DNA from: Mesotaenium endlicherianum
Taxonomy: Eukaryota
Assembly: GCA_009602735.1 (NCBI GenBank)
Contig: WELA01001907.1
Coordinates: forward strand, 278,129 to 342,128
Direction of reading: 5' to 3'
Length of the DNA: 64,000 nucleotides
Shown: one piece after another, positions 9,446 through 57,600 of the stretch
Layout: each line of letters begins with the position of its first letter
Position numbering within the stretch: position 1 is the first letter of the stretch
Made by a program: the position numbers and the translations under genes
Notes under the pieces: generated by a model
Told to the model about the DNA's origin: nothing
Seen by the model: only the letters and a program-made list of their open reading frames with translations
Database searches by the model: none

Positions 9446-9849
9446 GTAGTTGAGAAGCCCTTTAAAAAAATGTGGAAGCCATCATGGCCTGGTCAACCGG
9501 GGCTACCTTTGCTAAAAGGAAGAACGTCTTAAGTCCTTTAAGAAAACGACGCGCATCAGACCCTGGGCCACCTTGAAGCTTTTCAGGCGGAGAGGGCTTG
9601 TAGGAAGGTCAGTGCCGAGGCCTGCCCAAGATTGGCACGTGGAATGGGCTAAGTGACGTCGCCAGCGGTCCCCCCCGTGTCCGTCCCCCACTAGGCAACC
9701 TACAAGTAAGAATAAAGAGTGGGGTGAGATTCCATCCTGGGAATAAAGCGAATGACTACCTCAGTTGATTGGCTTCAACGAGCGACATACGGTCCTTGGT
9801 ACGATTAGGAACGTCGAACAAAGTGCTTAGAGCTATGGTCATGGTGTAA

Positions 9850-10432
9850 TTGTTATAAGTAAGCTTGAAGACGGCTTATTGTGCGCTTGACATCGGAGTG
9901 CCCAAGTTCCGGGTGCACACTGAGCACCAACTGGTGCGTATAAGAGGCTTGAGGATCACCAAGACGGAGCCGTCTGCCATCACATGACGTACTTGGCCCT
10001 CCATGTAGACAGAATAGCGGCTGCGTTTGAGGACGCAGACGCGCTCCCTCAAAGGTGTCATGCGTCATCTGCTACGTGAGATATACTGAAGTCGAGTCAA
10101 ATTGTCACGTCCTTTGAACCTCGCAGCTCGGTGTCTTGCTCCTCTGCTGCAGCCATGGCAATGCGCCATGCATGTTGTGACAGTGACGACGTCAAGGTTG
10201 ATGAGCCCCGCAAGCTGAACGTTGCCGTCGACGGTGAAGGCTAGAAATGTCACCGCGTGCCTGGCCATCGACTCGTCCTCCTCGTGGCGGCCATTGAGAG
10301 GTCTCTCAACGATGGCTAAGGTTTATGGCTGATGGTGGTGCACGTCAAATTTGTAATCGTGGAGTATGAGTGCCTATCGCATGTACTCGCTAGTGAGGCG
10401 CCCTGAGATCATGAGCCACTTGAGTGGCTGGT
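9850..10432 (-). pseudogene. pol: End of RNase H and integrase Zn-binding region of the same element
   Basis: QPLKWLMISGRLTSEYMR*ALILHDYKFDVHH continues directly from GNH at 11669 once the solo LTR is removed; VMADGSVLVILKP and HPELGHSDVKRTISRL follow. Confidence 0.75.
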
Positions 10433-11668
10433 TGTAATGCATCAATTCATTATTTATTTAATCAATTGCACACACACATATCACTAAATAAATAATATGT
10501 CAATCTACTCACATATGCGAGTCCATCCAAATGAATATGTATCAATAGAATGGGAGTTTACTCACTTTGTCAAAAAGGTCAGCCGAATGATTTTTGTATC
10601 ATATTGTAGTTTGCTGACTTTGTCGAGGTCAGCAAGATGACATTTTGTATCAGAGTATAGGTTGCTGAGATTATTTGTGTAAGTATAGAATATAATATCA
10701 ACAGGCTGATATATAGTAGCTTGTATAAAAGTAGCAAGTATACTTGGACTCAGTACGATGAGGATAGATATATTTGTTTAGATGATTATCTGTAGATTTG
10801 GCACATGTGACCGTAGTATACTGAAAGTCGGGAGGTCGACTAAGATTCGGTAAATTGATGTCGTACCAGTGTGGTCAAATCCTGCGTAGGCGGAGCCGTC
10901 GTTAGTCAACTGAACAGTTAAGGCTTCAATCAACCGACCAATTGATATGGTCGTTACACCTAGATCCGTGCGTCCCAACTTAACGGGTTTCCCATGAGAC
11001 GGCGTACCTTGCGCCGTGGTCAACCAGGTGGTCACTAGGTACATAGCAGGCCGAGATCTCGTGATCCCTCATTCTGGACAGTAGGCTTTACAGTCGGATT
11101 TCAACTTGCAAACCATGTGTGCACTTTTGGGTTCGTTATTATGACCAGCTTTCACGAAAATTGCCATGGCATCTTCATGTGTGCTTCAGATCAAGCAAAC
11201 TAGGGCTTTTTGAAAAGATCTTATCAGCATGCATCCGTTGCTAGTAAGTTTGCTCAATTTGGATAAGTATTGACAGAGTTATGTCTTCTGACATTTCAGG
11301 GTCACTTAGTGGACAGATTCCATGGTTTGCATCTAAGTCCGTGGCATGTGTTTTAGCTACATTAAGGTCATCTGAATGAGAGCGCCTTCGCTATTCAATC
11401 CTTAAATGTTGTGTACGTGCTAATACATGCTTGTATGCGTGGTAGGCAAGAGGCCATGAGTTTCTAAAGGAGAAGCTCTAGTCCTCAAGTTAGCCCCTTT
11501 CTTGTGCCTTGTGTTAGTGTGCAACTATGGCACACTATGTTAAGTGGGTCAAGGGGTATATATGAGTAAACGGAATTAATCATAAGGGCAAAGATCGCTT
11601 TCTAATTTTACACGCTTCCACCTATCTCTGATCTTATATATTGTCTTAAATAAGCAAAACTTATTTCA
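10433..11668 (+). mobile_element. Solo LTR, family C (1236 bp), distantly related to the family A LTR
   Basis: TGTAATG...TTTCA ends; perfect 5-bp TSD CTGGT (10428-10432 and 11669-11673); interrupts RNase H. Confidence 0.92.
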
Positions 11669-12960
11669 CTGGTGGTTGCCGACAAGGCAGAAGGAGGCCC
11701 CGTATAAGTAGTGTTGGAAGTGCACAATAGCCCATACTACTGCAAGGCACTCACCCTCATCAGACTCGTACTTACCCTCCACGTGGTTGTTGCTGCGGCA
11801 AGCGTAGGCCACCACATACTCCACGTCGTCATGCTCCTTGACTAGCATCGCTTCTAGCCCCGCCTGCAACCAGGCCTTGTGCAGGATGAGGGACTTGATG
11901 TGGTTGGGCCGCCCCAGCACCAAGATTCTCAGCAGTAGCTCCTTTAGTTTGTCAAAGACCGCCCGTTGCTCCATGTCCTTAACATAAGCGACCCCCTTCT
12001 GCAGCTGGTCGTTGAGACGCATAGCGAACTTGTTCAAACGTGGCACAAATCGTTGGCAATAGTTGGCCAGCCCCAAAAAAGCTCTCAACTTGGAAATGTG
12101 CATAGAAGGCAAGGTGCCCGTGATGGCTAAAAATATTGGCTAACTCGGGTGCCGACCCGTTGGCGGAGAGGAGATGCCCCAAGTACTCCACCTCCCTTGT
12201 GCCAAACGTGCACTTGCCTGTGTGACACTTGAGCCCAACGTCAGCCAAACACTCTTGCAATATCGGATGTGCTCCACACACTCCTTGAACGTTCCGTTGA
12301 AGACGCACAATGTTAATGTAACACCAAGCAAAGAAAAACCCTGCCAGCTCGTTATGTATGACTTGCTGGAAGATGATGGGCGCGTTCTTGAGGTTGAATG
12401 GCATTGTCTTTCATTGCTATAGCATGTTCGTGTCCCAGAACACCGTCTTGTGCCTTGTCTTCATTTGTAATAGGGTTTTAGTTGAAGCCCTGCCTCAAGT
12501 CCAAAATGGGGAATTATGTGCAATTGCCCATGTTGTCAAACATCTCGTGAGGTATAGGCATGTAATAGCGGCCTTGCTTTGTGACTTCATTTAGCGCCGG
12601 ATATTTGTCGCACACCCTCTTCTCTTACCATTGTCCAAAGAGATCCTTCTTTGTTGGCATTGCTGCAGGGGCGGCGTAGTCCACATTTGACTCCTCAATA
12701 AGTCCCGCCTCTTGCAACTTGCTAGCTCTAACGTCCCCTAGGCCGTTCTTGAAGTTGCTAAGATAGCACCTCTTTTTAGAGACGGCTCGTCTGCCGTGAG
12801 AGGAAGCTTTGGAAGGGTGCCCTTGTAGACCTTAAGCCTCTTCATGCTGCTTGTAAAGTTGACGCTGCGTCTTGCGTTCAAGAGCGCCGTCAGGTGCGCA
12901 GCCTGTGACTCTGTCAGCGTCCCCCCCAGCTTCCACGTAGGGGTGGTTAGAGGCTTCCTG
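11669..12960 (-). pseudogene. pol: RT and RNase H of the methyltransferase-bearing gypsy element
   Basis: ORFs 11979-12404, 12140-12331 and 11666-12112, plus the upstream KKDxxGxW RT N-terminus; many stops and frameshifts. Confidence 0.9.
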
Positions 12961-13319
12961 CCCTGCTAGTGGCGTCTTCTCCTCGGCCACCGCTGCGAGT
13001 TTTCCTCTGCTACCTGCCTGAGGACAGGAAATTTAAAGAAGGAGACCTGTTTTCTTTGAGCCGGTGGAACTCCTTCGTTCTTCTTCCATCCCCTCAACGA
13101 ACCAAAGCTAGAGCGAGAGTCGTAAGAGTCACCGATCCCTGGAGGTGGCGAGGGATTACGAGAAGGCCTTGCACGCTATAGATGAGGATGAAGTCTGGAA
13201 GGTTTTGGGGTGGTAGAATCCTCCTTCGGTCCCGGTATGTCATCCTGGACCTCAAAGTGGCAAGGCTTCTCCGATTGGCGAGCCGTCGCGTATAGAGGGG
13301 TCAGTACCTGGATGCCCCG

Positions 13320-14067
13320 CGGGACCCACGTGAGAATGTTGGCGTCGACGGCCTGTTCCTAAGAGTCGTAGCCGCTTAACCTCGTTGAGGTTGTCCACCT
13401 GTGTGAGGTGAGGAGGGAACCCCATAGCGCGCTTCATCTCCAATACGCGGGGTTGCTCATATATGTATGTAGAGAGGTCAAGAACCATGCCTCGAGTTGT
13501 GGCAATGAATTTTGAACGCCTCACTGTCAATATGGCTCACATAGGTGGGAAGAGCAACACAGATCTCGCCGACCACCTCGCACTGGACGTAGGATGGGTG
13601 CGGCATATGAGCCTCCGATTGCGCCAAATGCTAGTCCTCTAAGATAGCGTTGACGAAGTATTGGTGACAATTACGAGCAACGGCTAGGGCCTCAATGGTG
13701 CCAAGAAGCGCGAGGTTGGTGAAGTTCGCTTGGAGTTGGTGGACGAAGCAATCAATATGTGTCGCTTCAATGACGGCCCTCCAACCAATGTAGCAGCTGC
13801 AGAGGTCAAAGTGGTTGGGGGCCGACGTGGACAGCCACGTTCTCCTCGATCGAGGCTAGCGTATGAGGCAACTAGTGGTCCTCAAACAGGTTGAGAATGC
13901 AGATAAGGTGCCAGATGAGTGCCATGCAAGGATTGCTGGGGGCTCCTCCAACATCGACGATAGAAAAAACCTAGCACTCCCAATCACTGATGACAAGGTC
14001 AACTGGATGGAGGCAAGCGACATGCTCGTTTGGAACGTCTTGAATATCCATAAGCCAGTTTGTCAGT
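13320..14067 (-). pseudogene. Retrotransposon-borne C5 cytosine DNA methyltransferase catalytic domain (about motifs III-X; motif I missing), inactivated
   Basis: In order: MDIQDV; PVDLVISDWEC*VFS (motif IV, 13971-14000); EENV (motif VI, 13836-13844); IEATHIDCFVHQLQANFTNL (motif VII/VIII-like); ALPTYVS..SEAF; EQPRVLEMKRAMGFP (motif IX); LLG/QAVDANIL (motif X). Confidence 0.8.
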
Positions 14068-14787
14068 TGTAATGAATCAGTATACTGGTCGATATAATAT
14101 TTATTTAAATAATATAGTTAAATAAGTTCAGCCTGCTGAACTCTAGTTAACAATCAGTCTGCTGGACTTTATACTTAATATCAGTTTAATGACTTGGCCG
14201 GAAGTAGCAGGCTGAGGCCACCTTAAGTCAGCTTGCTGACACATTCTTTGACAGCCGGCTGACTCCGTACTCGGTAGCAGCGAACTGCCTTGGTATGCAT
14301 CTAAGTACGACATGCTAGATGAATGGCCAGATGACATCCCTATGATGGATGGCGATTCGGGATGATGGGAGATGGCGGTGGATTTGGTTAACCGAGGTCC
14401 TACCAACGTGGTTAACTCCCGGGTAGGCGGTGCCATCGCACTGACCGTTGAACAGTAAACTCATTCCATGTACATACGCTAGACATTGCTCTCGAGTTCG
14501 GCATTCGGAAACGAGGCCAACTCTCTTGTATAGCTTACTGAGAGAGATCTGAATCCAAGGCGAGAAGCCATTGATACGCACTGTCTTCTAACCTTGCTTA
14601 TGTATGAGTTTACTGATTTGCATTATTGATGCTAGTTTACTCGCATTTGACTTACGAGTATTATTCACTGCTAGTGTATTGTCCTTTGCCGTTTAACCAG
14701 TTAACGGAAATTACCATAAAGATTACTTGCTGATATAAAGATCTTTATTAATTGTTAATCGCCTATTTGGTAAGTCGATTCATTTCA
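14068..14787 (+). repeat. 5' LTR of A2
   Basis: TG..CA ends, followed by the PBS; direct repeat of 22160-22880. Confidence 0.97.
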
Positions 14788-14788
14788 G

Positions 14789-14800
14789 TGGTATCGGAGC
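14789..14800 (+). promoter_or_regulatory. Primer binding site, initiator tRNA-Met type (TGGTATCGGAGC)
   Basis: 1 nt after the LTR; one mismatch to the usual plant iMet PBS TGGTATCAGAGC. The same 12-mer occurs at 7443, 39082 and 60324. Confidence 0.9.
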
Positions 14801-14821
14801 AGTTATCACAGTCTTCTTTGT

Positions 14822-16300
14822 ATGGTAAGGACAAGGTCTCAAACTAGCAACTCCCGAGACATGGAGAACCAGGATAACGAGAATGTCGAAAACCAGGCGG
14901 AAAGCCATGTAGCGGGAAACCGTACCTATTCGGAAGCAGTAGCGGATACTGCAGCTAGGGAGGCTGCAGATGAGGCAGCTGCTATTGCCTCAGTCGCAGC
15001 TCAGCAAGCTGAGGAGGAGATAGCCAGACTAGAAGCTGAACAAGTAGCAAAGGCCGCTGAAGATATACAAAGGAGGGAAGGACAGCCAGCTGACGAGCGC
15101 ACTGTTGAAGAACTTATGGCATCAAGGGCCAATGTTCTGAACCCACCTCCTGCCGTACAACTCAATGTACCCCTAGGTCAAATACGTGACCGGCTGAATG
15201 CGGCAGGAATTGCTGCTGCAGGAGCAAGAGGGATTGTTGAGGACACTACTCAGCGAGTAGATGCCAATGCTGCTGCTGCATTTGCTAATCTACCACCCCA
15301 AAATGTAGACTTGGGAGCATTGTTCGTTCAGATGCAGTCGCAAATGGCGACCATGTATCAGTCCCAGCAGGAGGACAAAAGAATCATAATGTCCCTACTC
15401 CGGGACAGAGACCAACTGGGGTCTCACACCACTAGTGGTGGTGGCCGAGGGCCTAGTAAGCCCAAGCCGAAACCTCCCCAGGACTATGATCCTGAGGGAA
15501 ACAGAAAATATTACCTGATCAAGTTTCTCGCGGATGTTGAGCAGTGGCTGGAGAACTACCCAGAACTGCAAGATTACGAGAAGGTCAGGCACACCGGTGC
15601 GCTACTGAAAGGCAGTGCCGCAGACTGGTGGCTTTACTGGAAGGAAGAGCGTAAGGCTCGGCAACTCGGTGACCCTACGTGGGTAGAGTTTGTCGAGAAG
15701 TTGCATGAGAAGTTTGATGTCATCAACCAGCAGGAGAAAGCTATCTATGCGATGATCTCCCTGACACTGAAGCAGACCACTTCAGTTGCTGAGTTTGCTC
15801 AAAAGTTCCAAGAGAACATGATGAAGCAGCCTGATTTGCCAGAACGGTATAGGATAGCATACTTCAGGTATGGCTTGAAATCCGAGGTCTCTGGTCATTT
15901 TGCTGAGAAAAAGTATGAGAAACTGGCTGACTTGATCCAGGATGCTGACGCCTGGGATCAGCAGCAGTTCAATCACAAGCGCCAGAGTAACGCTTTGGTG
16001 TCTAAGATTGTCAAAAAGCCCCACGGTTCCTACAATGCAGTTGAAGGAGACCAGGCTGAGGATAATCAGGGTGATGAATATGAGTATGAGTACAATGCTA
16101 TTCAGTCTAGAGGTAGAGGTGGTCCCTCTCGAGGTGGCTATGGAAGGGGTGGTGGTAGGACTAAGCCGAGACCAGCCTTAGCAAAATCTACTTGCTACCA
16201 TTGTCAGCAGAAAGGCCACTACAGAGAACAGTGTCCGGTCAGGCACCTGCCTAAGGTCGAGAGAAAAGACCAGCCTTTAAAAGACAGCAACAGTCAGTAA
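14822..16300 (+). CDS. gag: Gag, family A (492 aa)
   Basis: MVRTRS start, capsid-like region LKGSAADWW..TWVEF..LKQTTSVAEF, RGG stretch, CX2CX4HX4C knuckle. Confidence 0.95.
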   Translation: MVRTRSQTSNSRDMENQDNENVENQAESHVAGNRTYSEAVADTAAREAADEAAAIASVAAQQAEEEIARLEAEQVAKAAEDIQRREGQPADERTVEELMASRANVLNPPPAVQLNVPLGQIRDRLNAAGIAAAGARGIVEDTTQRVDANAAAAFANLPPQNVDLGALFVQMQSQMATMYQSQQEDKRIIMSLLRDRDQLGSHTTSGGGRGPSKPKPKPPQDYDPEGNRKYYLIKFLADVEQWLENYPELQDYEKVRHTGALLKGSAADWWLYWKEERKARQLGDPTWVEFVEKLHEKFDVINQQEKAIYAMISLTLKQTTSVAEFAQKFQENMMKQPDLPERYRIAYFRYGLKSEVSGHFAEKKYEKLADLIQDADAWDQQQFNHKRQSNALVSKIVKKPHGSYNAVEGDQAEDNQGDEYEYEYNAIQSRGRGGPSRGGYGRGGGRTKPRPALAKSTCYHCQQKGHYREQCPVRHLPKVERKDQPLKDSNSQ

Positions 16301-16317
16301 TCCAGTCTACTGACTGT
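16276..16317 (+). promoter_or_regulatory. -1 ribosomal frameshift signal between gag and pol (family A)
   Basis: Slippery T-TTA-AAA in the gag frame (16276-16282), 7-nt spacer, 10-bp stem ACAGTCAGTA/TACTGACTGT (16290-16317). The -1 frame is open into the protease. Confidence 0.8.
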
Positions 16318-19300
16318 GAGGATGCTAGAGATAGTGAGTCGTCACTAGCTGCCCTCGTAGCAGGTATTATGGGTCCTGCTGAACTGGATTCACTATGCAT
16401 GCCTGACAAACAGATAAAGGAGACCATCAGTAATATAGACGTCCAGAGAGTGCACACTCTGGATGCTCTTGTTCCACCTGATGTCCAACATTTCTTTGCT
16501 ACGTCAGGAGAACAATGCGAAAGTCAGGAAAAGACAGTCCCCCCTATCCTACTGCATTGCATGATTGCAGGTAGGAAGGTGAGGGCATTTGTTGACGGAG
16601 GGGCGTCACATACTTTTATTCACAAGGACTTAGTTAAGCGGCTAAGGCTGCCTACTGTCACCCAAGGGAATAGAAAAATATTCCTTGGAGATGCCTCAAG
16701 TATCCCGGGAGGAGTTATAACCAAGCCTATTGAGGTCCAGTTAGGTTCTGGCATTGCAGTTCTAACTGAAACGCTTACATTTGAGGTACTCAACACTGGC
16801 TTTTATGATCTCGTGCTAGGCAGGTCCTGGCTTAATAAACATCAAGCTGAAGTGTGTTGGAGCAGAGGTGCAGTTAAAGTGAGACGAGCCAGTGATGGGC
16901 AGACTGACTTGGCACCCAGCAGTGCTCTTCCTCTTGTCCTGTGTGGATGGCAAATGAAGGAAAAGAAGAGGCTTCCAGAAGGATGCAAGTTGCTGAATGC
17001 AATGGAGTTCGTCAAAAGCTGGAACCAGAAGGAAGACAGAATGTTCTGTCTGCTGCTAAGAGAGGTACCTCCTCAACCTGAAGAAGTGGTTGAGAAAAAG
17101 GTACACCCCCCGGAACACCCTACTGCTGCAAACATTGTTGCTCAGTACACGGATGTGTTTAATATGCCTCCAGGACTACCCCCTAAGAGATAAGTAGATC
17201 GTAGGATTTATTTATTACCTGGTAGCCAGCCACCCTGGCAACGCACGTATGGCTTGTCTTATTTGGAGAGTGAGGAGTTGAAAACACAGATTGCAGAGCT
17301 GGAGGAAAATGGTTACATTTCTCCCAGTAAATCACTGTACGGCGCACCTATCCTATTTGTTAAGAAAAAGGATGGCAGTATGCGGATGTGTGTGGATTAC
17401 AGAGCCCTGAACAGAATTACAGTAAAGAACAAGTATGCTTTACCCAGAATCGAGGACTTGCTTGATACCCTGTCTGGCGCTAAGGTGTTCAGTAAGATAG
17501 ATCTCAAGAGTGGTTATCATCAAATCAGAATTGCTGAGGGGGATGAACACAAGACTGCTTTCCGCACACGTTATGGACACTATGAGTTCAACGTGATGCC
17601 ATTTGGACTGACTAATGCTCCTGCTACCTTTATGGGTGCTATGAATGACATTTTCAGACCTTATTTGGATAAGTTTGTGCAAGTTTTCCTGGATGATATT
17701 TTAATTTTCTCTAAAGATGAAGCTCAGCACACTGAACACTTAAAGAAAGTGCTGGACACTCTGCGGAAAAATCACTTGTATGCTAAAATGAGCAAGTGTG
17801 ATTTCTTTAAGGAAAGTATTGAATTCTTAGGCCACGTTGTCAGTAAAGAGGGCATCAGTGTGGATCCTAAGAAAGTCCAGACCATAAGGGACTGGCCAGT
17901 ACCACAGTCTGTCTCTGAAGTTAGATCCTTCCTCGGGTTGGCTAACTACTATAGGAGATTTATTGAGAATTATTCCACAAAGGCCAGTAAACTGACTGAC
18001 CTTACTAAGAAAGACATCGGGTATGTGTGGGGGGAAGAGCAGCAGGCTGCCTTCCAGACCCTTAAAGATGCCCTTTGTTCTGCCCCAGTGCTAGCCGTGT
18101 ATGACCCCAGCAAACCGGTGCAGGTGGTTACTGATGCCTCTGATTTTGCCATGGGTGCTATTTTGTTGCAGCCTGCTGACAAAACCACAAAGGATGGTAA
18201 GGTACGGCAGGAGTGGCATCCTGTGTTGTATGAGTCTATGAAATTTAATCCAGCGGAGATTAATTACTCAGTGCATGATAAAGAGCTGCTAGCTATCATT
18301 CATGTACTCAAACAGTGGAGAGCATACTTACATGGTAAAGCTTTTAAGGTGATTACAGATCATCTAGCTCTGACCCACTTTCAGAAGAAGTCCAAGCTGT
18401 CGAGGAGGGAGAACCGCTGGAGCCAGATGCTGGAGCAGTTCCAAGTCCAGATCGACTACAAACCAGGGAAGTTGAATCCTGCTGATGCACTCTCTAGAAG
18501 ACCTGACTTGCAAGAAAGGAACTTTAGTCAGCATGCTGTAGATAAAGTCCTGTGTGCACTCACTTCACTAAAGGTGAAAAAGTCCTTCCTTGAACAACTT
18601 AGGAAAGCCTACCTTTCTGACCCAACATTTGAGCCCAGCCCCACTACTGGTGTGTGTCGTGCTACTGCACTCGGGTATAAGCTCAAGGGAGGGGTCTGGG
18701 TGACTGAAACCACTTCAGGCAGGCTGAAGCTGGTCATTCCTAATAACTTGGAAATAAGGTCTCTCTTACTGAGTCAAGCTCATGACAGTCTCCTGGGTGG
18801 ACATTTGGGGCAGGCCAAAACTGTTGGCAAACTGGCAAAACATTATCATTGGGAGGGGTTACCCCGGGAGGTCTTGAAATATGTCAAGTCCTGTGACCAG
18901 TGTCAGAGAAATAAGTCTCGGCACACACCACCCGGAGGTCTCTTGCAACCGCTACCCATCCCAGCGGGACGCTGGGAAACTATATCCATGGACTGGGTGG
19001 TCTCACTACCAAGAACTGCCAACGGGCATGATTCAATACTGGTAGTCGTGGATAAACTGACAAAAATGGTCATTTTTATCCCCACAACTGTCAAAGTGAC
19101 TGCACTCGAAACAGCGAGACAGTTTTACAACCATGTAGTATGCCAACATGGGCTCCCTTCTAATATCATCTCAGACAGAGACTCAAAATTCACCTCTAAG
19201 TTCTGGAGAGCTTTAATGGGGTTAATGGGAGTCAAACAGCTGCTCAGCACAGCAAACCACCCTCAGACTGATGGGCAGACTGAAAGAACTAACCGAGTTC

Positions 19301-20085
19301 TGCAGGAGGTGCTGAGAGCATATATTAACCAAAAACAAGATAATTGGGATGACCTGTTGCCTCAAATTCAGTTTGCGGTCAACAGTGCGGTGCACGCGTC
19401 AACGGGCAAGACTCCTTTTGAACTCAGCCTGGGTAGAGTCCCTAAGTCTCCTCTAGATGTGCTAGGGGAATCTTTAACTCACCCTGAAGGGATTGACAAC
19501 CCGGTCTCCCTCCAGTTAACTCAGGAGTTTGCTGACACCCTGTCAGAAGTCCAACGAAACTTGCACAAGGCCCAAGAAAACCAACAAAAATACGCTAATC
19601 AACACCGTCGGGAACTGACATTTTCCAAGGGGGATTTAGTCAAACTGCATTCTCAGCACCTGTACCTCCCTGGTGTGGTCAAGAAAAAGCTTGGCCCTGT
19701 CTGGGTCGGTCCATATTCGGTGGTCCGTCGTGTCGGTCAGAATGCTTACAAACTGAACATGTCAGCTGACTACAAGGGTCACCCGGTCTTTAATGTCTCC
19801 TTCCTGGAACCATACATCAAAGGTGATACACTGTTCACAGGTCGGTTACCTGTCCAACCGGGACCGGTCCCCGCTGTCCGGGACGGCGACCCTGAGGAAT
19901 ATGAGGTCGATGAGATTTTAGACGCTCGCTCGGTCCGTCGATCGTCTAAATATGTCATGAAGTACCTCATCCGATGGAAGGGTTACGATGCCTCTGGGGA
20001 CACTTGGGAATTTAAAGACCAGCTGACCAATGCCAAAGGGGCGTTGAAACGGTTCCACCTTCGGGCGGCTGGGGCACCGCCCTAA
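16276..20085 (+). pseudogene. pol: Pol of A2 (protease, RT, RNase H, integrase, chromodomain) with a single in-frame stop at 17191-17193
   Basis: DGGAS protease; FLDD RT; TDASD RNase H; HHCC and D,D35E integrase; [23 protein letters not shown] chromodomain. TAA at 17191 replaces the GAA seen in sister copies. Confidence 0.95.
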
Positions 20086-20409
20086 CTGTCCCTTCAGTAG
20101 ACATGGGAAGGTGACAGGAGGTCCTGTCTCCATATAAGTTGGAGGGGGATGTGACAGTTAGTGACAGTTGTGACAGGCAGCCCACCTTTAAAATTAAGTT
20201 GGAGGGAGTGGTATTCTCTGATCACCATATTACACACTCAACCTGCGCTCACACTCACTTGCTCTCTAACTCAATTTTCCCTTATATTCACTCACACCAG
20301 GTATTCCACACTAGGAACTCTCCCGATCGCGTTCCTCTTCATCAAGGGCACTCAGTAGCGGCAAAATATCATGACTTCACTAACTGCATTGTGTTTATGA
20401 TTGAGCAGG

Positions 20410-22074
20410 ATGACTCAAAAGTCGGAACTCAAGAGGAAGAGAAGGGCGGAAGAGGCACATGCAGAATACTTGCAATTCCGTGGAGACATCGAATCATCTT
20501 CCATCTCCGCTCGGGAATCACAACGACTCCAACAACAGCGGGAGGCACAGAAGAAGAAGGAGGAGGAGGAACAGGCCAGACTGAGGCAGGAAGAAATGGA
20601 CAGAAAAGCTGCAGAGGAGGCTAAGAAAGCAGAGGAGGAGAGGCAAGCTGAGGAGAAGCGGAAGCAGCAGGCTGAAGAAGAAGAACAGAGGAGAATCAGC
20701 AGCTACCGCTACACGGTGCTGGGCAAGGGCTTTGATCTACTGGAGGAGGCCTTCAAGTATGCCCAGAGAAGTCGCAGTGAGTCGCAGAAGGAAATCCTCC
20801 AGAAAGGGGAGACATCCGAAAACTTTGACAAGCATGTAGAGGTCGGCACAGGGCTCCTCCTCTACCACGATTACGCCAGGATGGTAGGATATACCATCGG
20901 AGAGGCCAAGGCAATGGCCCAGGTGAACGAAGCAGGAGCTGTCTCGATTCCTGGTATCTGGGGGGCAGATAGGGTCATCAGGATGATCCCCATGGACGCG
21001 GACAGCTTCAAGGACTCAACACCCCACAACAGGTTCAAGGCCATGTACAATGAGGTGGAGAGGAGGAGCTGGGAATTCTTGGCCAGAGAAACCAGTCAGC
21101 TGGACTTTGCAGGGCACTGGTACCCTTGTACTCTTAAAAAGACAGACGCTGCCTTCTTCCAAAAGCCCACTGATTGGCGGTGGATGACCATCAACATGAG
21201 GGACCAGCAGAATGACAGGGCGACGGATGAGGATTTCCTGACAGACCTAAACGGGAACATAGTATTGCCCCCTCACATTGCGGCTTGGGACCCAAGATTG
21301 GATGGAGTCAGAGACTGCATGAGCCAAGAGATGCAGGGGGACAGAAGCAGGGCCCGAGAGTCATTCTCCAAAGGGAAGCACGCTTATGCCAAATGGGCAA
21401 GTAAGCAGGGGGAAAAGGACCTCTATGCGGTCCGGACTCAGCAGCCCCCACCAGCACCCAAAAGGGGAAGGTCAGTAGGATATTCTTTTTCTCGGGAAGA
21501 GCTGGAGCAGCGGACAGAGGAGACCCCAGAAGTCTCAGAGGAACCCGGGGACGGCGAGGAGGCGGAGTCGGAGGAAGACGAGGAGGAAGGCGAGGAGGAG
21601 GACACTAGCCCCGCCGTGATCCTGACACCTGCCACATCCCCTGTAAGGGAGAAGACGGGGTTGGCCCCGCAGCAACTCGCTGAAGAGGAGGATATCACTT
21701 GGCTGGGAACTGCCAGAGGACAGAGCCCATCTCCAGGCAAGGAGACCCAGTCAGACAGGGCAGACAGGAGGGCTGCTCGGGAGATAGCCAGAGGCCTGCC
21801 AGCATCTCCCTCGCAGAGAGGGCATGTACCCTTGGCTCATGTCATGCAACATCCTTCTGGGATGCCGGTATACGTACCTGTCAGTTTGAGGGCTGCCCAG
21901 GAGAAGGCTGCCTCCCTTCAGTTTCAGACTGTGCAGGAGGAAACAGCCCAGTTACTGCGTTCTCCGCCGGGTCCTTACACGGAACCCCCTTCTCTAACAG
22001 GCTTCAAAAGACCCCAAGACAGGAGGAGGTCTGGCTCCCCTGAGCATAGGGCCTCAGGGACATCTCCCTCCTAA
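20410..22074 (+). CDS. ORF3 type a: accessory protein of unknown function (~554 aa) between pol and the 3' LTR
   Basis: Uninterrupted ORF from ATG 20410: basic N-terminus (KRKRR), E/K/Q/R coiled coil, globular core conserved with 46372-48047, acidic tract, low-complexity tail. No signal peptide or TM segment is visible. Confidence 0.9.
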   Translation: MTQKSELKRKRRAEEAHAEYLQFRGDIESSSISARESQRLQQQREAQKKKEEEEQARLRQEEMDRKAAEEAKKAEEERQAEEKRKQQAEEEEQRRISSYRYTVLGKGFDLLEEAFKYAQRSRSESQKEILQKGETSENFDKHVEVGTGLLLYHDYARMVGYTIGEAKAMAQVNEAGAVSIPGIWGADRVIRMIPMDADSFKDSTPHNRFKAMYNEVERRSWEFLARETSQLDFAGHWYPCTLKKTDAAFFQKPTDWRWMTINMRDQQNDRATDEDFLTDLNGNIVLPPHIAAWDPRLDGVRDCMSQEMQGDRSRARESFSKGKHAYAKWASKQGEKDLYAVRTQQPPPAPKRGRSVGYSFSREELEQRTEETPEVSEEPGDGEEAESEEDEEEGEEEDTSPAVILTPATSPVREKTGLAPQQLAEEEDITWLGTARGQSPSPGKETQSDRADRRAAREIARGLPASPSQRGHVPLAHVMQHPSGMPVYVPVSLRAAQEKAASLQFQTVQEETAQLLRSPPGPYTEPPSLTGFKRPQDRRRSGSPEHRASGTSPS

Positions 22075-22159
22075 GGGCAGCAGGCTGGGGATAAGAGGGA
22101 CAGCACGCTGTTATTAGTGATAGTGTTGTCGAGGCGACAACATGATAAGTTGGAGGGAT

Positions 22160-22880
22160 TGTAATGAATCAGTATACTGGTTGATATAATATTCATTTAA
22201 ATAATATAGTTAAATAAGTTCAGCCTGCTGAACTCTAGTTAACAATCAGTCTGCTGGACTTTATACTTAATATCAGTTTAATGACTTGGCCGGAAGTAGC
22301 AGGCTGAGGTCACCTTAAGTCAGCTTGCTGACACATTCTTTGACAGCCAGCTGACTTCCGTACTCGGTAGCAGCGAACTGCCTCGATATGCATCTAAGTG
22401 TGGTATGCTAGATGAATGGCCAGATGACATCCCTATGATGGATGGCGATTCGGGATGATGGGAGATGGCGGTGGATTTGGTTAACCGAGGTCCTACCAAC
22501 GTGGTTAACTCCCGGGTAGGCGGTGCCATCGCACTGACCGTTGAACAGTAAACTCATTCCATGTACATATGCTAGGCATTGCTCTCGAGTTCGGCATTCG
22601 GAAACGAGGCCAACTCTCTTGTATAGCTTACTGAGAGAGATCTGAATCCAAGGCGAGAAGCCATTGATACGCACTGTCTTCTAACCTTGCTTATGTATGA
22701 GTTTACTGATTTGCATTATTGATGCTAGTTTACTCTCATTTGACTGACGAGTATTATTCACTGCTAGTGCGTTGTCCTTTTGCCGTTAAACAGTTAACGG
22801 AAAGTACCATAAAGATTACTTGCTGATATAAAGATCTTTATTAATTGTTAATCGCCTATTTGGTAAGTCAATTCATTTCA
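22160..22880 (+). repeat. 3' LTR of A2
   Basis: Preceded by hairpin TGTTGTCG-AGG-CGACAACA (22124-22142) and PPT AAGTTGGAGGGAT. Confidence 0.97.
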
Positions 22881-30612: not shown

Positions 30613-33164
30613 TTAACCTCTCAGCGAAAAGAATTTCTGCAATAATCGCTTATCCTTACTCCTCTTTATGCTATCATTCAAAGGACTGCTACCATCATCA
30701 CCTGCAGAAGGTGGTCCATGACCAGACACAGGATGCAACCGCAATGGCTGTTGAATTTTTTTTGGACAAAAATCATCACCATCGACCTTCAAGCTTTCTA
30801 TGTTCATATCAGCAGGATCAAAAACAAGGACACTTGTTTGTCTTGCTGCTGCACTATCTTCCAAACTAACGTGTTCCCTCGCTGCAACTCTGTCTTCCTC
30901 CTCCTTGTGCTGCTGTAGTAGATCCTCTACCCTTTGTATGGCAGCCACAGAATTGTCTCGATGCATCAGAAAATAGCCCTGAATCATGGCAGGGCTAATG
31001 GTGCCCTCGGGCAACTGAGTGGCAAATTTATTTGCTTCACTTTGTGAGGCTTCTGGATAGAATTTTAGAAATAGGTTGATCAGTTGTAGCCTAGAGCACA
31101 GACCTATGAAAAGGCGCAAGTCCACCCTACCAGGCCTGATGAGGGCAGGATCCAAGCGGTGCAGATGGTTGGTGGTCATCACCAACAATCTTCCTTCTTG
31201 GGCAGAAATGCCGTCAATGGCATTGAGGAGTCCAGAGAATGAGAGCCCGTTGTGCTTCTCATTTCCATCCGTCCTCTTGTTTGTAAATGCAGCGTCAACA
31301 TCTTCGAGGACAAGAATGCTGTGGGTGTCACAGCGATTCATGGCAGTATGAAGCTGCATACGTCACATAAAACATAGTATCAGATGGTTCCAAAGCATCC
31401 TAACATGCCTGCCAGCAGATACGACACACACAGGGAGATCGACACTTCTACAAGCAGACGATAATCAAAAAAATGAAGCAACATGACGTACCATGTCATC
31501 ACTCATTTCTTTGGACGATAGCCCAACCATGGCAACATCAAGGCCAAGTTCTCCAGCTAGAGCTTGGATGAGTGATGTCTTGCCACACCCGGGCGGACCG
31601 TACAGTATATATCCCCTCCTATGAGGTATACCTCTGTCATTATACCTGCAATAATATCAGGACCACTGTACGCACAAATAAAATCCTCCAAATTTTACAC
31701 ACAACCTTTCAGGGAAGGCCACAGGGCATTGGTGATTTAAATCAGTAAAGGCAAGACAGTATCCTGCAAAGCAATCAGAAGCACACAACAGATGCTGCCT
31801 TCCTACTCTGAATGAGAAAGTAGCAGAGAGAGCGCACCAATTGTAGCTGCCGAGAAACTGTCGGGCATCCGCCACAAGGCCCTCCACATCGCAGTCCAAT
31901 ACCACACTGCATATGTACCAACCAGCCTCAAGCCGCATCACGAGTGCCGCAACAGGCATTTTTAAAAGTAAGTACTCGCACAGACAATGCTTGTGGTGCA
32001 GAACACCACGAAACTAATACCTCTATAGGGCAGGAGGTCAAGAGGGGACGGCATGACTGCTAGCATTCACCTATTCAAAGGGCGAGCAAGTCTCGTGGCA
32101 ACAACGTTCCAGTAGTATTCCTGGGCATTCCATCTCTTTATCGTTGTCTTCCTGGTTCCTTCTTCCTTCTTGAAATAAGTCTCCATAGCATCGTGTATCA
32201 CAGCTTCCAGAACATCCCTTGTTGGACCCTCTATAACAAGTTGCTCCTTTCCTCCAGCTGACTGCAAAAGAGTTGCTAAATCACCACCGTCTGCCTCTCC
32301 TTTATTAGCAGCTCCAATCTTTCGCTGAATCTGGAATACGACCTGCATATGGAGAAGTCATTCAGAAACCGACACATGCTTGCGACACACAATCAATGTT
32401 GAGACAAGCCTATGTCCTCTGCATCAGCAGTCAATGGGCTGAATTCAGCTGCCCACGTAACTTCACCTCTCTCTTGCTCTTCACTCTGTTCACACGTCAC
32501 TCCAAAGATACGGGAATAACAATCCCAACCTGTCAGAAAGCAATACCCTCTACTACTAACAGTTGTAACACTTCCATCTGCGCAACTGCGGTAAACTGAC
32601 AAGACCATGCACAGTACCCTCGTCGGATAAAGTTCTTCACTGAAAGGGAATATGCATGTTTGACAACAAGAAATGAAGTAAGCTCCTCTCCACCATCTGA
32701 AATCGAATCAAAGGGGCGCTGCTCCCTTATTTGCTTACCTTCTGGCCCTCGTATATGATGGTTTGAGCCTCGAGAAGCTGAGGTAAAAATAGCAAGCGGG
32801 GACGTGCAGTAGAATCTCGCTGGCTCCCTCCATCCCCGTAGTCGTCAGGTCTATCTGAGGGCAGGCCCCATTTTGTCTGGAGCGTCAGCTGCGATGAATC
32901 TTTTGTAGCGTGTTGACAAAGCCATTCTTGCAGCCACTGAAAGGCTTCTTCGTCCGGCTTCACATAAACTACATATATGCCCCTTCTGCGGCTAACGTAC
33001 TCCCAAAATTGAGCCCAATATTTTCGGAAGAAATTAGCAAGAAACCCTACTAGCATTAAACCAAACCCCCCGGCAAAGTAGTCATTCTGCAAATACTGCC
33101 TCTTCAATGCAGAAACAACTGCTTCTTGACCACCTACTAGCCAATCTGAGGAAGTATCATTCAT
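30613..33164 (-). CDS. BCS1: BCS1-type mitochondrial AAA ATPase; exons 33164(or 33236)-32739, 32342-32071, 31906-31838, 31645-31492, 31353-30613
   Basis: N-terminal [16 protein letters not shown] segment; [34 protein letters not shown] (Walker A); ILVLEDVD (Walker B); [29 protein letters not shown]. All four introns are GT..AG and preserve frame. Confidence 0.92.
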
Positions 33165-33539
33165 GTGACCAGTCAAATGGCTACGGGGTATGCTCCAGTG
33201 AGTAACATAGTTCTGTTTATGACGGATCAACCCCATCGCACAAATTTCTACAAGCACAACCCCGCTAAGTACCCTCTTGTCTGCATGAGCTGTTCACCAA
33301 AAGTACGATGACACTTCTTCATCTCGGAGTCGCTCAATCAATGTTTCTTCATCTCGCCTGGACTTTATTTACTTCAAGGAGACGCAACTGTACTCGTATG
33401 CGAAAATCCTTCACACACGTATTCTAGAGTCGATCGAAATATGATGAGGTATGACCAAGTATGACGAAGTAAAAGAGTAATGAGTCGACAGCATGGAATC
33501 GGTGCGAGGAAGGTTTATGGGAAAACCGTAGCTTTTCCT

Positions 33540-38169: not shown

Positions 38170-39116
38170 TGTAATGAATCAGTATATTGGTAGATATAAT
38201 ATTCATTTGAATATAATAGTTTAAATAGTTCAGCCTGCTCAACTTTAGTTAATATTGAGTCTGCTGGACTTCATAAAATAATCAGTTTAATAACTCAGCC
38301 GGGAGCAGCAGGCTGAAGTCAACTTAGGTCAGCTTTGTAAGGTCATAGGTTTATAAAGTGCATTTTTGAGTTTCATAAAATTATGTTTGGATTGTACATT
38401 CATGTAGAGTGCATTTTTGTGGTCATTTTGATATAAAGTTCATCGAATTTGGTCAAGTATTGAGAGAGTTATGGATTTCCAAAGTTTAATTAGTTTTGAA
38501 GTCGGTTGACGACTGTCCTTAATTCGCGGTGAGCGCGACCGTCGGATTGACCGACAGCGTCGAGCGATCTGGCCCGTTAGAATGAACTCGAACCTTCACG
38601 TAAGTTCGGCTGACGCGGAGTGCCGACTAGGTCGATTTACCTAGAAGTTTCGGTTTAGCCTAGCGCGTCTAAGATAGAATATTCTAGTAATGTCGATGCA
38701 TGTATGTGGACGTCAATTCGGCCCGACACGTCAGATTAGACTGATCTGGCTTACTCACGAATATTCTGGAAGGGACGATTTGACGAACACTTAGGAAAAT
38801 CCGTAGCTTCCTCCTAGGGAGGAGCACTTAGGCAGAAAATTATAAATAGGCATAACTTCTTTGTTTCTTATCAGTTTTCACTTCTGTAAATTTCTACGGG
38901 TTTGTAATGACAAGGCCTTTCATCCTACATCATTTGTGAGCAGTTTCCTGCTACTCAAAATGTTGAGTAATTTTCCTAAGCTTTGTTAGTGATATGCCGC
39001 TGCACTCTCTAGTATGATGGCAACTAGTTCCTTTCCTCGTGAGTCACTACGCTTCCACTAGGGCACTCTGCCCCTTTCATCTGGTATCGGAGCAGGGCTA
39101 GTTTGCATATTATATT

Positions 39117-45218: not shown

Positions 45219-45546
45219 TGTAATGAATCAGCATATTGGTTGATATTATATTCATTTAATTATAATAGTTAAATAAGTTCAGCTTGCTGAACTCTAGTCG
45301 ATATTTAATCTGCTGGACTTCATGAAAATAACAGGTTAATGACTCAGCCGGAAGCAGCAGGCTGAAGTCAACTTAAGTCAGCCAGTTGACACATTCTTTG
45401 ACAGCCAGCTAACTTCCGTACTCGATAGCAACGAATTGCCTAGATATGCGTCTAAGTGTGGTGTGCTAGATGAATGGCCAGATGACATTGTTAGGATGGA
45501 TAGCGATTCATGATGATGGGAGATGGCGGTGGATTTGGTTAACCGA
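45219..45546 (+). repeat. 5' part of another family A LTR, cut by inverted element A4
   Basis: TGTAATGAATC start at 45219; colinear with the first ~330 bp of the A LTR. Confidence 0.9.
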
Positions 45547-46371: not shown

Positions 46372-48047
46372 CTAAGGGGTTGTTCCAGGGGCTTCAGGAT
46401 CAGGAGACTGGGATTCGGACCTAGATCTGGACAGCCCTCTAGGTCTGTCAGCTGGCCTTCTAAAGAACCCCGTTTGTTCTAAAGTTGGACCTCGAGGAGA
46501 ACAAAGGTAGGTAGCCTGCTCTTCACCCACTTGGATGTTGATCCCCACATAGACAGGCATTCCAGTAGGATGCTGAAATACAATGGCAAGAGGTACATGT
46601 CTAGAGCGAAGGGCAAGGCCGGCATACCTCTGGCCATCCCGCGTGTCCCTCTTCTGAAACCCCTGTCCTCTGGGGATTTCGGGCTGTGTCTGCTGCCAAG
46701 TATAGTCAGATCAGCTTCTTCCCCTGCTTGGGCAGGTGGGCTGGGGGAGCGAGTGCGGGGTCCAGTTGCCTCCATGACCGGGATCACGTTCCATATACCT
46801 GATCTTGGTTCCTTAAGAAGTGCCCCTGCCTGCTCCTGGGTCTCCTGAGTACCAGCTCCTGATGCTTCTGCTCTGCCTTGTTCTTCTTCCTCATCCTCCT
46901 CATCCTCCTCCTCTGAGAGAGTAGGAGTCTCGTCCACTAAGTCGTCTTGCTCCCTGGTAGACATGGAGTAGTCTACTGACCTCCCTTTCTTAGGGCGCGC
47001 TGGAGGTTGCTTGGCCTTCAGCCTGCTGATATCTATCCGGCCTGCATTCTTCGTCCATTTGACGAAGGCATGCTTTCCCTTAGAGAAGTAGTCTCTTCCC
47101 CTCCTCCTGTGCTCTTTGGTCTCTGCATTCATATTGCTCAGGCAGCCATTCAGCCTTGGGTTCGAAGGGGCAATGTGAGGTGGTAGGATGAGGTAGCCGT
47201 CTAGGCCATAGTGGAAATCGTCTGGTTGGGCTCGGTCACAATCCTGCTTTTTGTTTGTGACGGTCATCCACCTCCAGTCTGTTGGCTGCTGGTAGTACTG
47301 GGGTTCATGCTCAGCCTTTCTCGGTTTACATGGGAACCACTGGGGAGAGAACATCTGCTGTCCGGCCTCCCTGGCCAAGTACTCCCAGCTCCTTCTCTCA
47401 ACTTCATTGTAAGCTGGCAATAGTGTGAGGTAGAATACCGTATCCTTGAAGCTATCTGGCCGCATGCTCACCATCCCGATAGGTCTTTGATCTCCCACTA
47501 TTCCCGATATTGGGACTGGCTTGTCCTCTGAATCATCGGCAAGGTAACGGGCCTGCTCTGCTGTGTAGCCCACCATCTTGGCATAATCCTCGTAGAGGAC
47601 CATACCAGTGTGTGTCTGAATGTACCTATCCAGTGCTGCAGTTCCTTCCCTCTGTGGCAGTGTTGTCTGTTCCAGCTTGTTGATCTCTTGGGCTGCCAGC
47701 AATGCTTCTTTTAGGTAGTCAAAGTTTTGGCCACCCACCACAGTATACCTGTAAGTGGCCAAGCTCTTCTGCCTGTCCGCTTCAGCCTTTTTCCTTCTCT
47801 CCTCCTTTGCCGCTGCCGCTTCTTCTTGTTGTTTCTTCTGTCTCTCCTCCTCAGCTTTCCTGAGGTTTTTCGCTTCCTGATCCTTCTTCCTCTGTGCTTC
47901 TTCTGCCGCCTCTTGTTGTTTGCGGACCCTTTCTTGTTCTCTCCTGGCGAGGGACGTCGCCGCGAGCTCCTTCTGGTATTGCTCCATTGTCCTCCTGGCT
48001 TCTTCTGCCTTGCGCTTTCTGTCCTTCTTTTGTGTGGTGGGAGCCAT
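46372..48047 (-). CDS. ORF3 type b, diverged homologue of 20410-22074; one frameshift near 46610
   Basis: Shared motifs YRYTV, LYxDYAxMVGYT, DSFKD, YNEVERRSWExLARE, W(Y/F)PC, PTDWRWMT, LPPHIA..PRLxG, FSKGKHA, PKxGRSV. The C-terminus (MPVYV...) continues in ORF 46372-46560. Confidence 0.88.
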
Positions 48048-54652: not shown

Positions 54653-57600
54653 TCTAGACACACACCATCGGGGGGCTTCTTACAACCGCTGCCCATCCCA
54701 GCTGGACGCTGGGAAACAATATCCATGGACTGGGTAGTAACACTGCCACGAATTGCCAATGGGCATGATTCGATACTGGTAGTCGTGGATAAATTGACAA
54801 AAATTGTCATTATCATTCCCACAACTCTCAAAGTAACTGCACTCGAAACAGCGAGACGGTTCTACAACCGTGTAGTATGCCAACATGGGCTACCCTTTAA
54901 TATCATCTCAGACAGAGACTCAAATTTACCTCTAAGTTGTAAAGAGCTTTAATGGGGTTAATAGGAGTCAAAGAGTTGCTTAGCACAGCAAATCATACTC
55001 AGACTGATGGGCAGACTGAAAGAAATAAACGAGTTCTGCAAGAGGTGCTGAGAGCATACATTAACCAAAAACAAGACAATTGGGATGACCTATTGCCTCA
55101 AATCCAGTTTGCGGTCAACAGTGCGGTGCACGCGTCAACGGGCAAGACTCCTTTTGAACTGAGCTTGGGTAGAGTCCCTAAGTCTCCTTCAGATGTACTA
55201 GGGGAGTCTTTATCTCACCCTGAAGGGATTGACAATCCGGTCTTCCTCCAGTTAACCCAGGAGTTTGCTGACACCCTGTCAGAAGTCCAACAGAACTTAC
55301 ACAAAGTCCAGGAAAACCAACAAAAATACGCTAATCAGCACCGTCGAGAATTGACATTCTCTAAGGGCGATTTGGTCAAATTGCATTCTCAGCACCTGTA
55401 CTTGCCTGGTGTGGTCAAGAAAACGCTTGATCCTGTCCGGGTCGGTACATATTCGGTGGTGCGCTGTGTTTGTCGGAATGCTTACAAATTGAACATGTCA
55501 GCAGAATACAAGGGTGACCCAATATTTAATGTCTTCTTCTTAGAACCATACATTGAAGGTGACACGCTGTTCACAGGTCGGTTACCTGTCCAAACGGGAC
55601 CGGTCCCCGCTGTCTGGGATGGTGACCCTGAGGAATATGAGGTCGAGGAGATTTTAGACGCTCGCTTTGTCCGTTGATCATCTAAATATGTCATGATGTA
55701 CCTGGTCAGATGGAAGACTTACGACGCCTCTGGGAACACTTGGGAATTTAAAGACCATTTGACCAATGCCAAAGGGGCGTTGAAATGGTTCCACCTTCGG
55801 GCGGCTGGCACCCCTCCCTAACTGTCATTTCAGTGGATATGGAGAGGTGACAGGAGGTTCTGTCTCCATATAAGTCGGAGGGGAATGTGACAGGTAGTGA
55901 CCGATAGTGGCAGTTGTGACAGGCAGGCCACCTTTCAAATTATGTTGAAGGGAGTGTGTTCCGTTTCGGGTTCAGCCAGGCAAATTGCATAACCATTTTG
56001 CACACTCAACCTGCCCTCATACACACTTTTTCTCTCTAACTCAATTCTCTCTTATGCTCACTCACACAAGGTACTACACACGAGGGACTCTTCCTATCAC
56101 GTTCTTCTGCACCACGGGCACTCAGTCGCGGCAAAGTATCATGACTTCAGTGACCGCATTGTGTTTATGATGGAGCAGGATGACTTAGAAGTCGGAACTT
56201 AAGAGGAATAGAAGAGCGGAAAAGACACATGCAAAATGCTTGCAATTCCGTGGCGACATCGAATCATCCTCCATCTCCGTTCGGGAATCACAACGACTCC
56301 AACAACAGCGGGAGGCACAAAAGAAGAAGAAAGAGGAGGAATAGGCCAGGCGGAGGCAGGAAGAACTGGACAGAAAAGCTGCAGAGGAGGCCAAGAAGAC
56401 AGAAGAGGAGAGGCAAGCTGAGGAGGGGCGGAGGCAGCAAGCAGAAGAAGAACAAATGAGAATTAGCAGCTACCGCTACACAGTGCTGGGCAAGGGCTTT
56501 GATCTACTGGAGGAGGCCTTCAAGTATGCCCAGAAAAGTCGCAGTGAGGCACAGCAGGACATCGTGCAGAGCGAAGGGGAGACATCTACAAACCTTTACA
56601 AGTATATAGAGGTCAGCACAGGACTCCTCCTTTACCACAATTATGCCAGAATGGTAGGATATATGGTCAGAGAGGCCAAGGTAATGGCCCAGGTGAATGA
56701 AGCAGGAGCTGTATCAATTCCGGGTATCTGGGGGAAAGATAAGGTCATCAGGATGATCCCCATGGACGCGGACAGCTTTAAGGACTCTACATCCCATAAC
56801 AGGTTCAAGGCAATGTATAATGAGGTGGAGAGAAGGAGCTGGGAATTTTTGGCAAGAGAAACCAATTAGCTGGACTTCGCAGGGCACTGGTACCCTTGTA
56901 CTATGAAAAGGACAGACCTTGCCTTCTTCCAGAAACCCAGTGTTAGTGTTGTCGAGGCGACAACATGTAAAGTTGGAGAGATTGTAATGAATCAGTATAT
57001 TGGTGAATATAATATTCATTTAAATATAATAGTTAAATAAGTTCTGCCTGCTAAACTTTGGCTAATATTGAGTCTGTTGGACTTTATAAAATAATCAGTT
57101 CAATGATCCAGCCGGGAGCAGCAGGCTGAAGTCAACTTAGGTCAGCTTGCTGACACATTCTATGACAGCCAGCTGACTTCCGTACTCGGTAGCAGTGAGC
57201 TGCCTAGATATGCATCTAAGTGTGGAGTGCTAGATAAATGGCCAGATGACATCCTTAGGATGGATGGCGATTCGGGATGATGGGAGATGGCGGTCGATTT
57301 AGTTAACCGAGGTCCTACCAATGTGGTTAACTCCCGGGTAGGCGGTGCCATCGCACTGGCCGTTGAACAGTAAACTCATTCCATGTACATATGCTAGGTT
57401 TTGCTCTCAATTTCTGCATTTGAAAACAAGGCCAACACCCTTGTACTGCTTACTGAGAGATATCTGGATCCAAGGCGAGAAGCCATTAATAAGGACTCTC
57501 TTCTAGCCTTGCTTATGTATGAGTTTATTGATTGCATTATTGATGCTAGTTTACTTGCATTTGACTTGCGAGTATTGTCCACTGCTAGTATGTTGTCCTT

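Follow-up and report, generated by a model that had tools for sequence, protein, structure and literature searches.

What is the long open reading frame that follows pol in a chromovirus of Mesotaenium endlicherianum, and does it encode a functional protein? We addressed this question in a window of 64,000 nucleotides, that is, the whole stretch of DNA that was analysed (contig WELA01001907.1 of assembly GCA_009602735.1, positions 278,129 to 342,128 of the forward strand). All coordinates below count from the first letter of this window.

The element and its extra reading frame

The window consists of nested LTR retrotransposons on either side of a single host gene, BCS1. The element under study, copy 1 of family A, has LTRs, a PBS, a PPT, the domain order PR-RT-RH-IN and a chromodomain at the C-terminus of integrase, and thus is a chromovirus (Ty3/gypsy). 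The element and its neighbours are as follows:

14068-22880, + strand: family A copy 1, whole element with LTRs, PBS, gag, pol, ORF3 and PPT
14068..14787, + strand: 5′ LTR of copy 1, the same as the 3′ LTR at 701 of 720 positions
14774..16300, + strand: gag, with capsid and zinc knuckle (Pfam PF19259, PF03732, PF00098)
14789..14800, + strand: PBS of the initiator-Met type, TGGTATCGGAGC
16255..20085, + strand: pol, PR-RT-RH-IN-chromodomain by Pfam matches, overlapping gag in the -1 frame
22160..22880, + strand: 3′ LTR of copy 1, matching the 5′ LTR
about 30613-33293, - strand: BCS1, intron-containing host gene with BCS1_N and AAA domains, between the nests
38336-44478: family B chromovirus, LTRs 98% alike, pol frame entering the 3′ LTR

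Copy 1 is flanked by TCAGT and TCAGC, a 5-bp target duplication with one mismatch. The PBS sequence TGGTATCGGAGC is found at 3 of the 5 LTR-adjacent sites shown and as variants at the remaining two; we take the corresponding tRNA to be initiator-Met. The pol frame of copy 1 contains one in-frame stop (17191-17193), at a codon that is not a stop in copies 2 and 4. A Pfam search placed the chromodomain (PF00385, E 6e-09) at pol residues 903-955, about 19900-20058, and the positions that presumably form its aromatic cage hold Y/W/Y. CpG is depleted along the element (observed/expected 0.41-0.49), as expected where the host methylates it. Family B is nested within a family A LTR (38170-38335 and 44479-45220); it has no ORF3-like gene within the window and has spread nonetheless. 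A further gypsy-like element is represented by decayed RT/RNase H fragments at 9400-14060 on the minus strand.

The frame after pol, ORF3, lies in a cassette of about 2 kb. The parts of this cassette in copy 1, and the two other ORF3 copies that tBLASTn found in the window, are:

20113..20149, + strand: hairpin 1 and PPT1, then TG; forms the left cassette edge, kept in 3 of 3 copies
20150..20409, + strand: type-1 spacer, putative internal promoter and leader
20301-20408, + strand: putative leader intron of 108 nt in the type-1 spacer, predicted from motifs
20410..22074, + strand: ORF3 type 1, 554 aa, open from the ATG at 20410 to the TAA at 22074
22123..22159, + strand: hairpin 2 (9-pair stem) and terminal PPT2 (22147-22159); right edge of the cassette
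46372..48047, - strand: ORF3 type 2 of copy 2, 44% identical to type 1, frameshift near 46600
56180..56941, + strand: ORF3 type 1 of copy 3, decayed and 3′-deleted, 83% identity over 255 codons

A sequence-only reading of this DNA had placed a 554-codon sense frame between the chromodomain and the 3′ PPT, and the open frame, the Pfam chromodomain and the PPT at 22147-22159 bear this out. In 1000 shuffles of the 2-kb cassette no frame of this length arose, the longest being 341. The same reading had described the frame as intact in all three copies; this holds for copy 1 alone. In copy 3 the frame is interrupted by stops at codons 3, 55 and 230, and a deletion runs from codon 254 to beside hairpin 2. 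Copy 2 is broken by its frameshift, which is absent from the main contigs of public runs X5 and X6. Copy 2 also has no target duplication and its LTRs are only 93% alike, and it may itself be a recombinant; for this reason the public runs were examined for both types. Its pol contains a 420-bp tandem duplication with an adjoining deletion (50866-51813).

Two ORF3 types on one gag-pol backbone

The earlier reading had overlooked the duplicated hairpin and PPT as well as the existence of two ORF3 types. Outside the cassette, identity between copies 1 and 2 is 86-100% in all 250-nt bins of LTR, gag and pol except one (65%), where copy 2 is rearranged. Right after PPT1 identity drops from about 93% to 51-61%; it stays in that range in seven 250-nt bins from 20318 to 22067, the edge bins being mixed, and returns at 22121. 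Two deeply diverged ORF3 types are therefore carried on one gag-pol/LTR backbone, within a 2-kb cassette between hairpin-and-PPT signals.

Both types were also recovered from public runs. In run X6 the contigs on copy 2 exit into type-1 sequence at 48346 and 46299, which are the two cassette edges. In this run the depth was 21.2 and 20.4 for the main type-1 contigs, 47.5 for type 2 and 71.2 for integrase; such contig depths do not amount to copy numbers, and they were summed for X6 only. The RNA label of this run is a guess, yet its coverage of the whole element is even and DNA-like. The types stand at about 30:70 in X6, and type 2 was found in X1 and X5 too. Nearly every copy likely carries either type 1 or type 2, as a two-way bubble. 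In run X1 numerous variant joints with differing letters between them were seen just 3′ of PPT1 (48286-48353), which indicates that copies differ widely at the beginning of the type-2 spacer.

We compared the substitution patterns of the copies. Between copies 1 and 3, ORF3 has pN 0.072 and pS 0.250 over 250 codons (dN/dS 0.25, Fisher p 1e-8), close to the values for integrase in the same pair (pN 0.054, pS 0.259). The tail is constrained on either side of the copy 2 frameshift (p 0.003 and 3.5e-10). A dN/dS near 1 across copies, which would have spoken against a gene, was thus not observed, and ORF3 is a gene under purifying selection. Between copies 1 and 2, ORF3 is saturated (pS 0.75, pN 0.36), while dS is 0.25-0.31 for pol and 0.07 for gag. 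Consequently, the two ORF3 types long predate their shared backbone.

How the two types came to share a backbone is suggested by the cassette edges. The hairpin-and-PPT blocks are the sole close homology adjoining the cassette. Since its interior is too diverged to recombine, the cassette would have moved as a unit via switches at these blocks, and the exchange probably took place when reverse transcriptase switched templates at the conserved blocks. A single old event followed by drift would suffice for the two types, with no need for repeated exchange; as gag and pol are themselves unequal in dS, both types can result from one recombination plus drift, and selection for both need not be assumed. 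A more elaborate proposal is that the duplicated hairpin and PPT form a programmed exchange slot, in which alternative forms of a new family of chromatin-acting proteins would be swapped on a single replication backbone and maintained side by side by conflict with host silencing, as in the allele switching of viral counter-defence. We regard this as rather doubtful.

Further motifs lie near PPT1. A third PPT-like motif is present in the type-1 spacer of copy 1 (20196-20207) and degenerate in copy 3. The heptamer GTGACAG is clustered around PPT1, with 4, 3 and 2 copies at 20111-20176, 55847-55922 and 48271-48382, respectively; the whole window holds 16 against 10.5 expected, a number reached in 5 of 100 shuffles. 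We take it to resemble a KNOX/BELL homeodomain site. The cluster could be a self-target array or may be a local duplication.

The ORF3 protein and the search for its relatives

Most of the protein anatomy proposed by the sequence-only reading held up in the translation. The basic KRKRR lies at aa 8-12, the second basic patch PKRGR at aa 350-354, and an acidic tract of net charge -21 at aa 363-410. Both basic patches are conserved in the two types (PKRGR/PKKGR). No transmembrane helix was found, the highest 19-residue hydropathy being 0.88 for type 1 and 0.57 for type 2, so that the description as not env-like stands. The proposed long coiled coil survives in part. AlphaFold2 predicts a helix at aa 3-101 (pLDDT 75-89), in agreement with a long N-terminal helix; just 4 of 64 residues are hydrophobic and there are 18 i/i+4 E-K/R pairs, so that this helix resembles a charged single helix rather than a coiled coil. 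Similarly, the tail described as disordered contains blocks common to both types (52% over 42 codons and 57% over 67 codons). An acidic-hydrophobic motif in the tail, also shared by the types, resembles what we take to be a SUMO-interacting motif. The core (aa 96-361) is 46% identical between the types and keeps 5 of 7 Trp, 7 of 11 Tyr, one Cys and two His. Third-position GC is 0.58-0.63 in ORF3 versus 0.50 in gag and pol.

From these features we consider it quite likely that ORF3 encodes a nuclear protein in which a folded core binds nucleic acid or chromatin, a charged helix serves as spacer and the tail is acidic and motif-bearing. The motifs make a nuclear role as such likely.

Searches for relatives gave no match to a known family or to a host gene, either of which would have counted against the earlier reading, and its statement that the core has no recognisable domain agrees with the lack of any profile match to the core in Pfam, PHROGs and NCBIfam. 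At E 0.1, Pfam returned for either type nothing except a sub-threshold match (E 0.049) to the type-1 tail. Profiles of Athila ORF1, Transposase_28, the plant mobile domain and VANC-like proteins, DNMT and DAM did not match ORF3. A word-based protein search with the type-1 core yielded 0 of 1498 candidates among proteins of 304-970 aa, and a three-sequence profile 0 of 7995 among proteins of 488-2000 aa. No relative of ORF3 was present in the ESM Atlas, in PHROGs, NCBIfam or phages, in metagenome contigs (0/148 and 0/74) or in viral contigs (0/76 and 0/3). Because the collections searched are poor in eukaryotic repeats, these results are weak evidence of novelty. AlphaFold2 models from three sequences had a mean pLDDT of 32.6 for the core and 45.2 for the whole protein, with values <50 across nearly all of the core; Foldseek found nothing at E 0.001, the low-pLDDT models being too poor for this to count as evidence. 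A PDB sequence match at E 0.27 was attributed to chance. Motif guesses for C5 and N6 methyltransferases, GIY-YIG and HEPN were rejected, as the conserved residues do not fit. Within the searches made, and as judged by sequence comparison, ORF3 appears to be a new protein family, and its class, a sense extra ORF after pol, is already known.

That class has been described as aORF-3S or eORF-3′F, located between pol and the 3′ LTR in SIRE, Athila, Tat and Tekay elements (listed in PMC7264820 and PMC6317226). ORF3 belongs to it by definition: it has at least 250 codons, lies in sense between pol and the 3′ LTR and occurs in most copies, the last point coming from the depth sum in X6. It shares with described members position, orientation, a length of >250 codons, fast divergence and the lack of database matches. 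It differs from them in lacking a transmembrane helix and in belonging to an element outside the flowering-plant RT group, and it has no Pfam match to the Athila ORF1, Transposase_28 or plant mobile domain of described extra ORFs. The assertion that chromoviruses normally carry only gag-pol was too strong, since a sense 3′ extra ORF is reported for 18% of 782 Tekay elements (PMC6317226, Additional file 5); as far as that source lists extra ORFs, there are none for Chlamyvir, Tcn1, Galadriel, Reina or CRM. Extra ORFs are common in plant LTR retrotransposons and, according to PMC7264820 and PMC6317226, almost all are without known function. The literature searched, mostly non-subscription, contained no description of the ORF3 protein or of two exchangeable types on one backbone.

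The placement of family A was examined in a quick RT-RH tree of 83 rows, from which 39 of 121 database rows with alignments under 340 aa had been dropped and which had no named Tekay reference. In this tree family A lies outside a 27-row group (98 SH-aLRT) containing 26 flowering-plant rows, and its RT does not group with seed-plant chromoviruses. It sits with Closterium and metagenome elements, with weak support (87). The best full-length matches of family A are 57-61% identical. Family A has a Met-type PBS, if our assignment of the tRNA is correct. Such a PBS is given for 5% of Tcn1 and 41% of Chlamyvir elements in PMC6317226, which describes Tcn1 chromoviruses as self-priming, with no tRNA PBS in 83% of elements. 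Together, this PBS and the neighbours of family A in the RT tree suggest a host of the green lineage other than a seed plant.

The upstream PPT has parallels too. Extra PPTs in the linker between pol and LTR occur in Sireviruses and are reported also for Athila4 and Calypso; those of Sireviruses mostly follow env (56/63) and have no TG attachment site (in the account of PMC2829016). Family A likewise has an upstream PPT. Unlike those of Sireviruses, PPT1 comes with a hairpin of its own and a TG after it, precedes the ORF and borders an exchanged block, which gives upstream PPTs a testable role as borders of such blocks.

Possible roles and expression of ORF3

The proposal that this chromovirus carries in ORF3 a working accessory gene unlike env is supported by purifying selection, by the lack of a hydrophobic helix and by the absence, in the searches made, of any match to a known family or host gene. 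The reading we favour, with an expectation slightly short of even, is a conserved cassette gene in two types whose product, likely nuclear, would influence the chromatin or transcription of the element itself and thereby keep copies active against host silencing. That the job is specifically anti-silencing or transcriptional activation of the family we hold more tentatively still, by analogy. Anti-silencing appears the most plausible activity because CpG is depleted, ORF3 is retained in nearly all copies and its divergence is unlike that of Gag and Pol; a protein that diverges while Gag and Pol do not suits a host-facing role more than one as partner of other element-encoded proteins. The spread of family B without ORF3 counts against this explanation, and no homologue, domain or fold from the searches made (core models pLDDT <50) supports any biochemical function.

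Other explanations share parts of this evidence. ORF3 might be a replication adaptor serving genomic RNA export or protection, nuclear import of the pre-integration complex or site choice by the chromodomain integrase, in the manner of retroviral accessory factors. Two basic patches, a long spacer helix and the likely retention of ORF3 in nearly all copies would fit, and roles of this kind are among those proposed for extra ORFs in PMC7264820. Types only 44% alike on near-identical Gag and Pol argue against a tight partner among the element's proteins, however. Family B, which lacks ORF3, also speaks against an adaptor, and we consider this role rather unlikely. Passenger status, with PPT1 and its TG left over from an earlier 3′ LTR junction, the cassette derived from a sister or helper family and selection mostly historical, is unlikely. 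The junction of PPT1 with TGTGAC does resemble those of PPT2 with TGTAAT and of the family B PPT with TGTAAG, the higher third-position GC relative to gag and pol points the same way, and 2 of the 3 window copies are broken. Yet the spacer does not resemble the LTR of either family A or family B (best local scores 18-24), and selection between copies 1 and 3 matches that on integrase at equal synonymous depth, so that it acted within family A; moreover, such an origin is compatible with a present function.

The coexistence of two saturated types at about 30:70 in X6, with type 2 in X1 and X5, could also reflect rival specificities, each type restricting or excluding the other or limiting copy number, and frequency-dependent selection keeping both. 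Drift after one swap accounts for coexistence equally well, and we find this quite improbable. An env-like protein for cell-to-cell movement would match the location after pol, a possible splice acceptor and a second PPT as reported for the env-carrying Athila4 and Calypso (cited via PMC2829016). It is highly improbable given that neither type has a hydrophobic segment (0.88 and 0.57), that the N terminus is charged and that there are 2 cysteines.

For the favoured role on the element's chromatin, known systems offer analogies. VANC proteins are anti-silencing factors of VANDAL DNA transposons with a predicted dimerising helix (as outlined in PMC13547354). The likeness is one of analogy, an element-encoded accessory factor with a predicted helical dimerisation region; VANC belongs to another element class, and ORF3 has no sequence match to the MAIN/plant-mobile-domain family. 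Should ORF3 counter silencing, it would stand to retrotransposons as VANC does to DNA transposons. Chromoviruses with DNA methyltransferases comprise the DAM-chromoviruses of Chlorophyta, EpiLTRs and streptophyte Gypsy-DNMT3 elements (summarised in 10.64898/2026.05.21.726589). Family A shares with them an algal-type chromovirus backbone and extra cargo, theirs being chromatin-linked; ORF3 differs in having no methyltransferase match and in being a separate ORF. Nuclear accessory proteins are mentioned for Grande (PMC7264820) and diverse non-env ORF3s for rotifers (PMC5408684), and Retand was compared as a further element (PMC11963269). In family A, a single genome holds ORF3 versions that are 44% alike while their backbones are nearly the same, a natural experiment from which conserved residues and any difference in target, methylation or spread can be read.

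A separate or spliced ORF3 transcript, as proposed earlier, is suggested by motifs at matching distances in both types. The type-1 spacer has a donor-like CAG/GTATTC at 20301, CACTAAC at 20378 and AG immediately before the ATG; in type 2, AAG/GTAAAC lies 107 nt and TACTAAC 31 nt upstream of the ATG, and copy 2 has no AG directly 5′ of its ATG. The two spacers, about 52% alike, thus have in common a YACTAAC some 31 nt upstream of the ATG and, 107-109 nt upstream of it, a donor-like site. When the two spacers were put through 20000 shuffles, donor- and branch-like motifs at such distances arose in 0.08% and 0.18% of them, the motifs having been picked post hoc. From these motifs it seems somewhat more probable than a coin toss that ORF3 is read from an internal promoter via a short leader intron.

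No splice joint entering ORF3 was found in three polyA runs (X22, X23 and X24), of which 6-12% each was read, at very low depth. For an env-type subgenomic mRNA spliced from an LTR donor, the element offers GGTAAGT at 14769, close to the end of the LTR, and an acceptor-like site; no such joint appeared in these three very-low-depth runs. In X23 the sense depth of type 1 was 2.3-2.6 over 20564-21105, below the gag-pol peaks of 4-6; it was at most 0.7 in X22 and X24. Type 2 had no reads in X23, the sole run checked for it. ORF3 is nearly silent in the RNA runs sampled. A joint from 21602 to 20558 in X23 and X24 was rejected as a purine-repeat artefact.

Antisense reads cover the 3′ end of integrase (18938-20292) in all three RNA runs, at depths up to 11.3; they fade in the type-1 spacer and have a loose end at 19687. 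They come either from an antisense promoter in the spacer of one truncated copy or from read-through. In X23 a polyA loose end at 45716 marks an element-antisense transcript that terminates inside a family A LTR, and it supports the strand reading.
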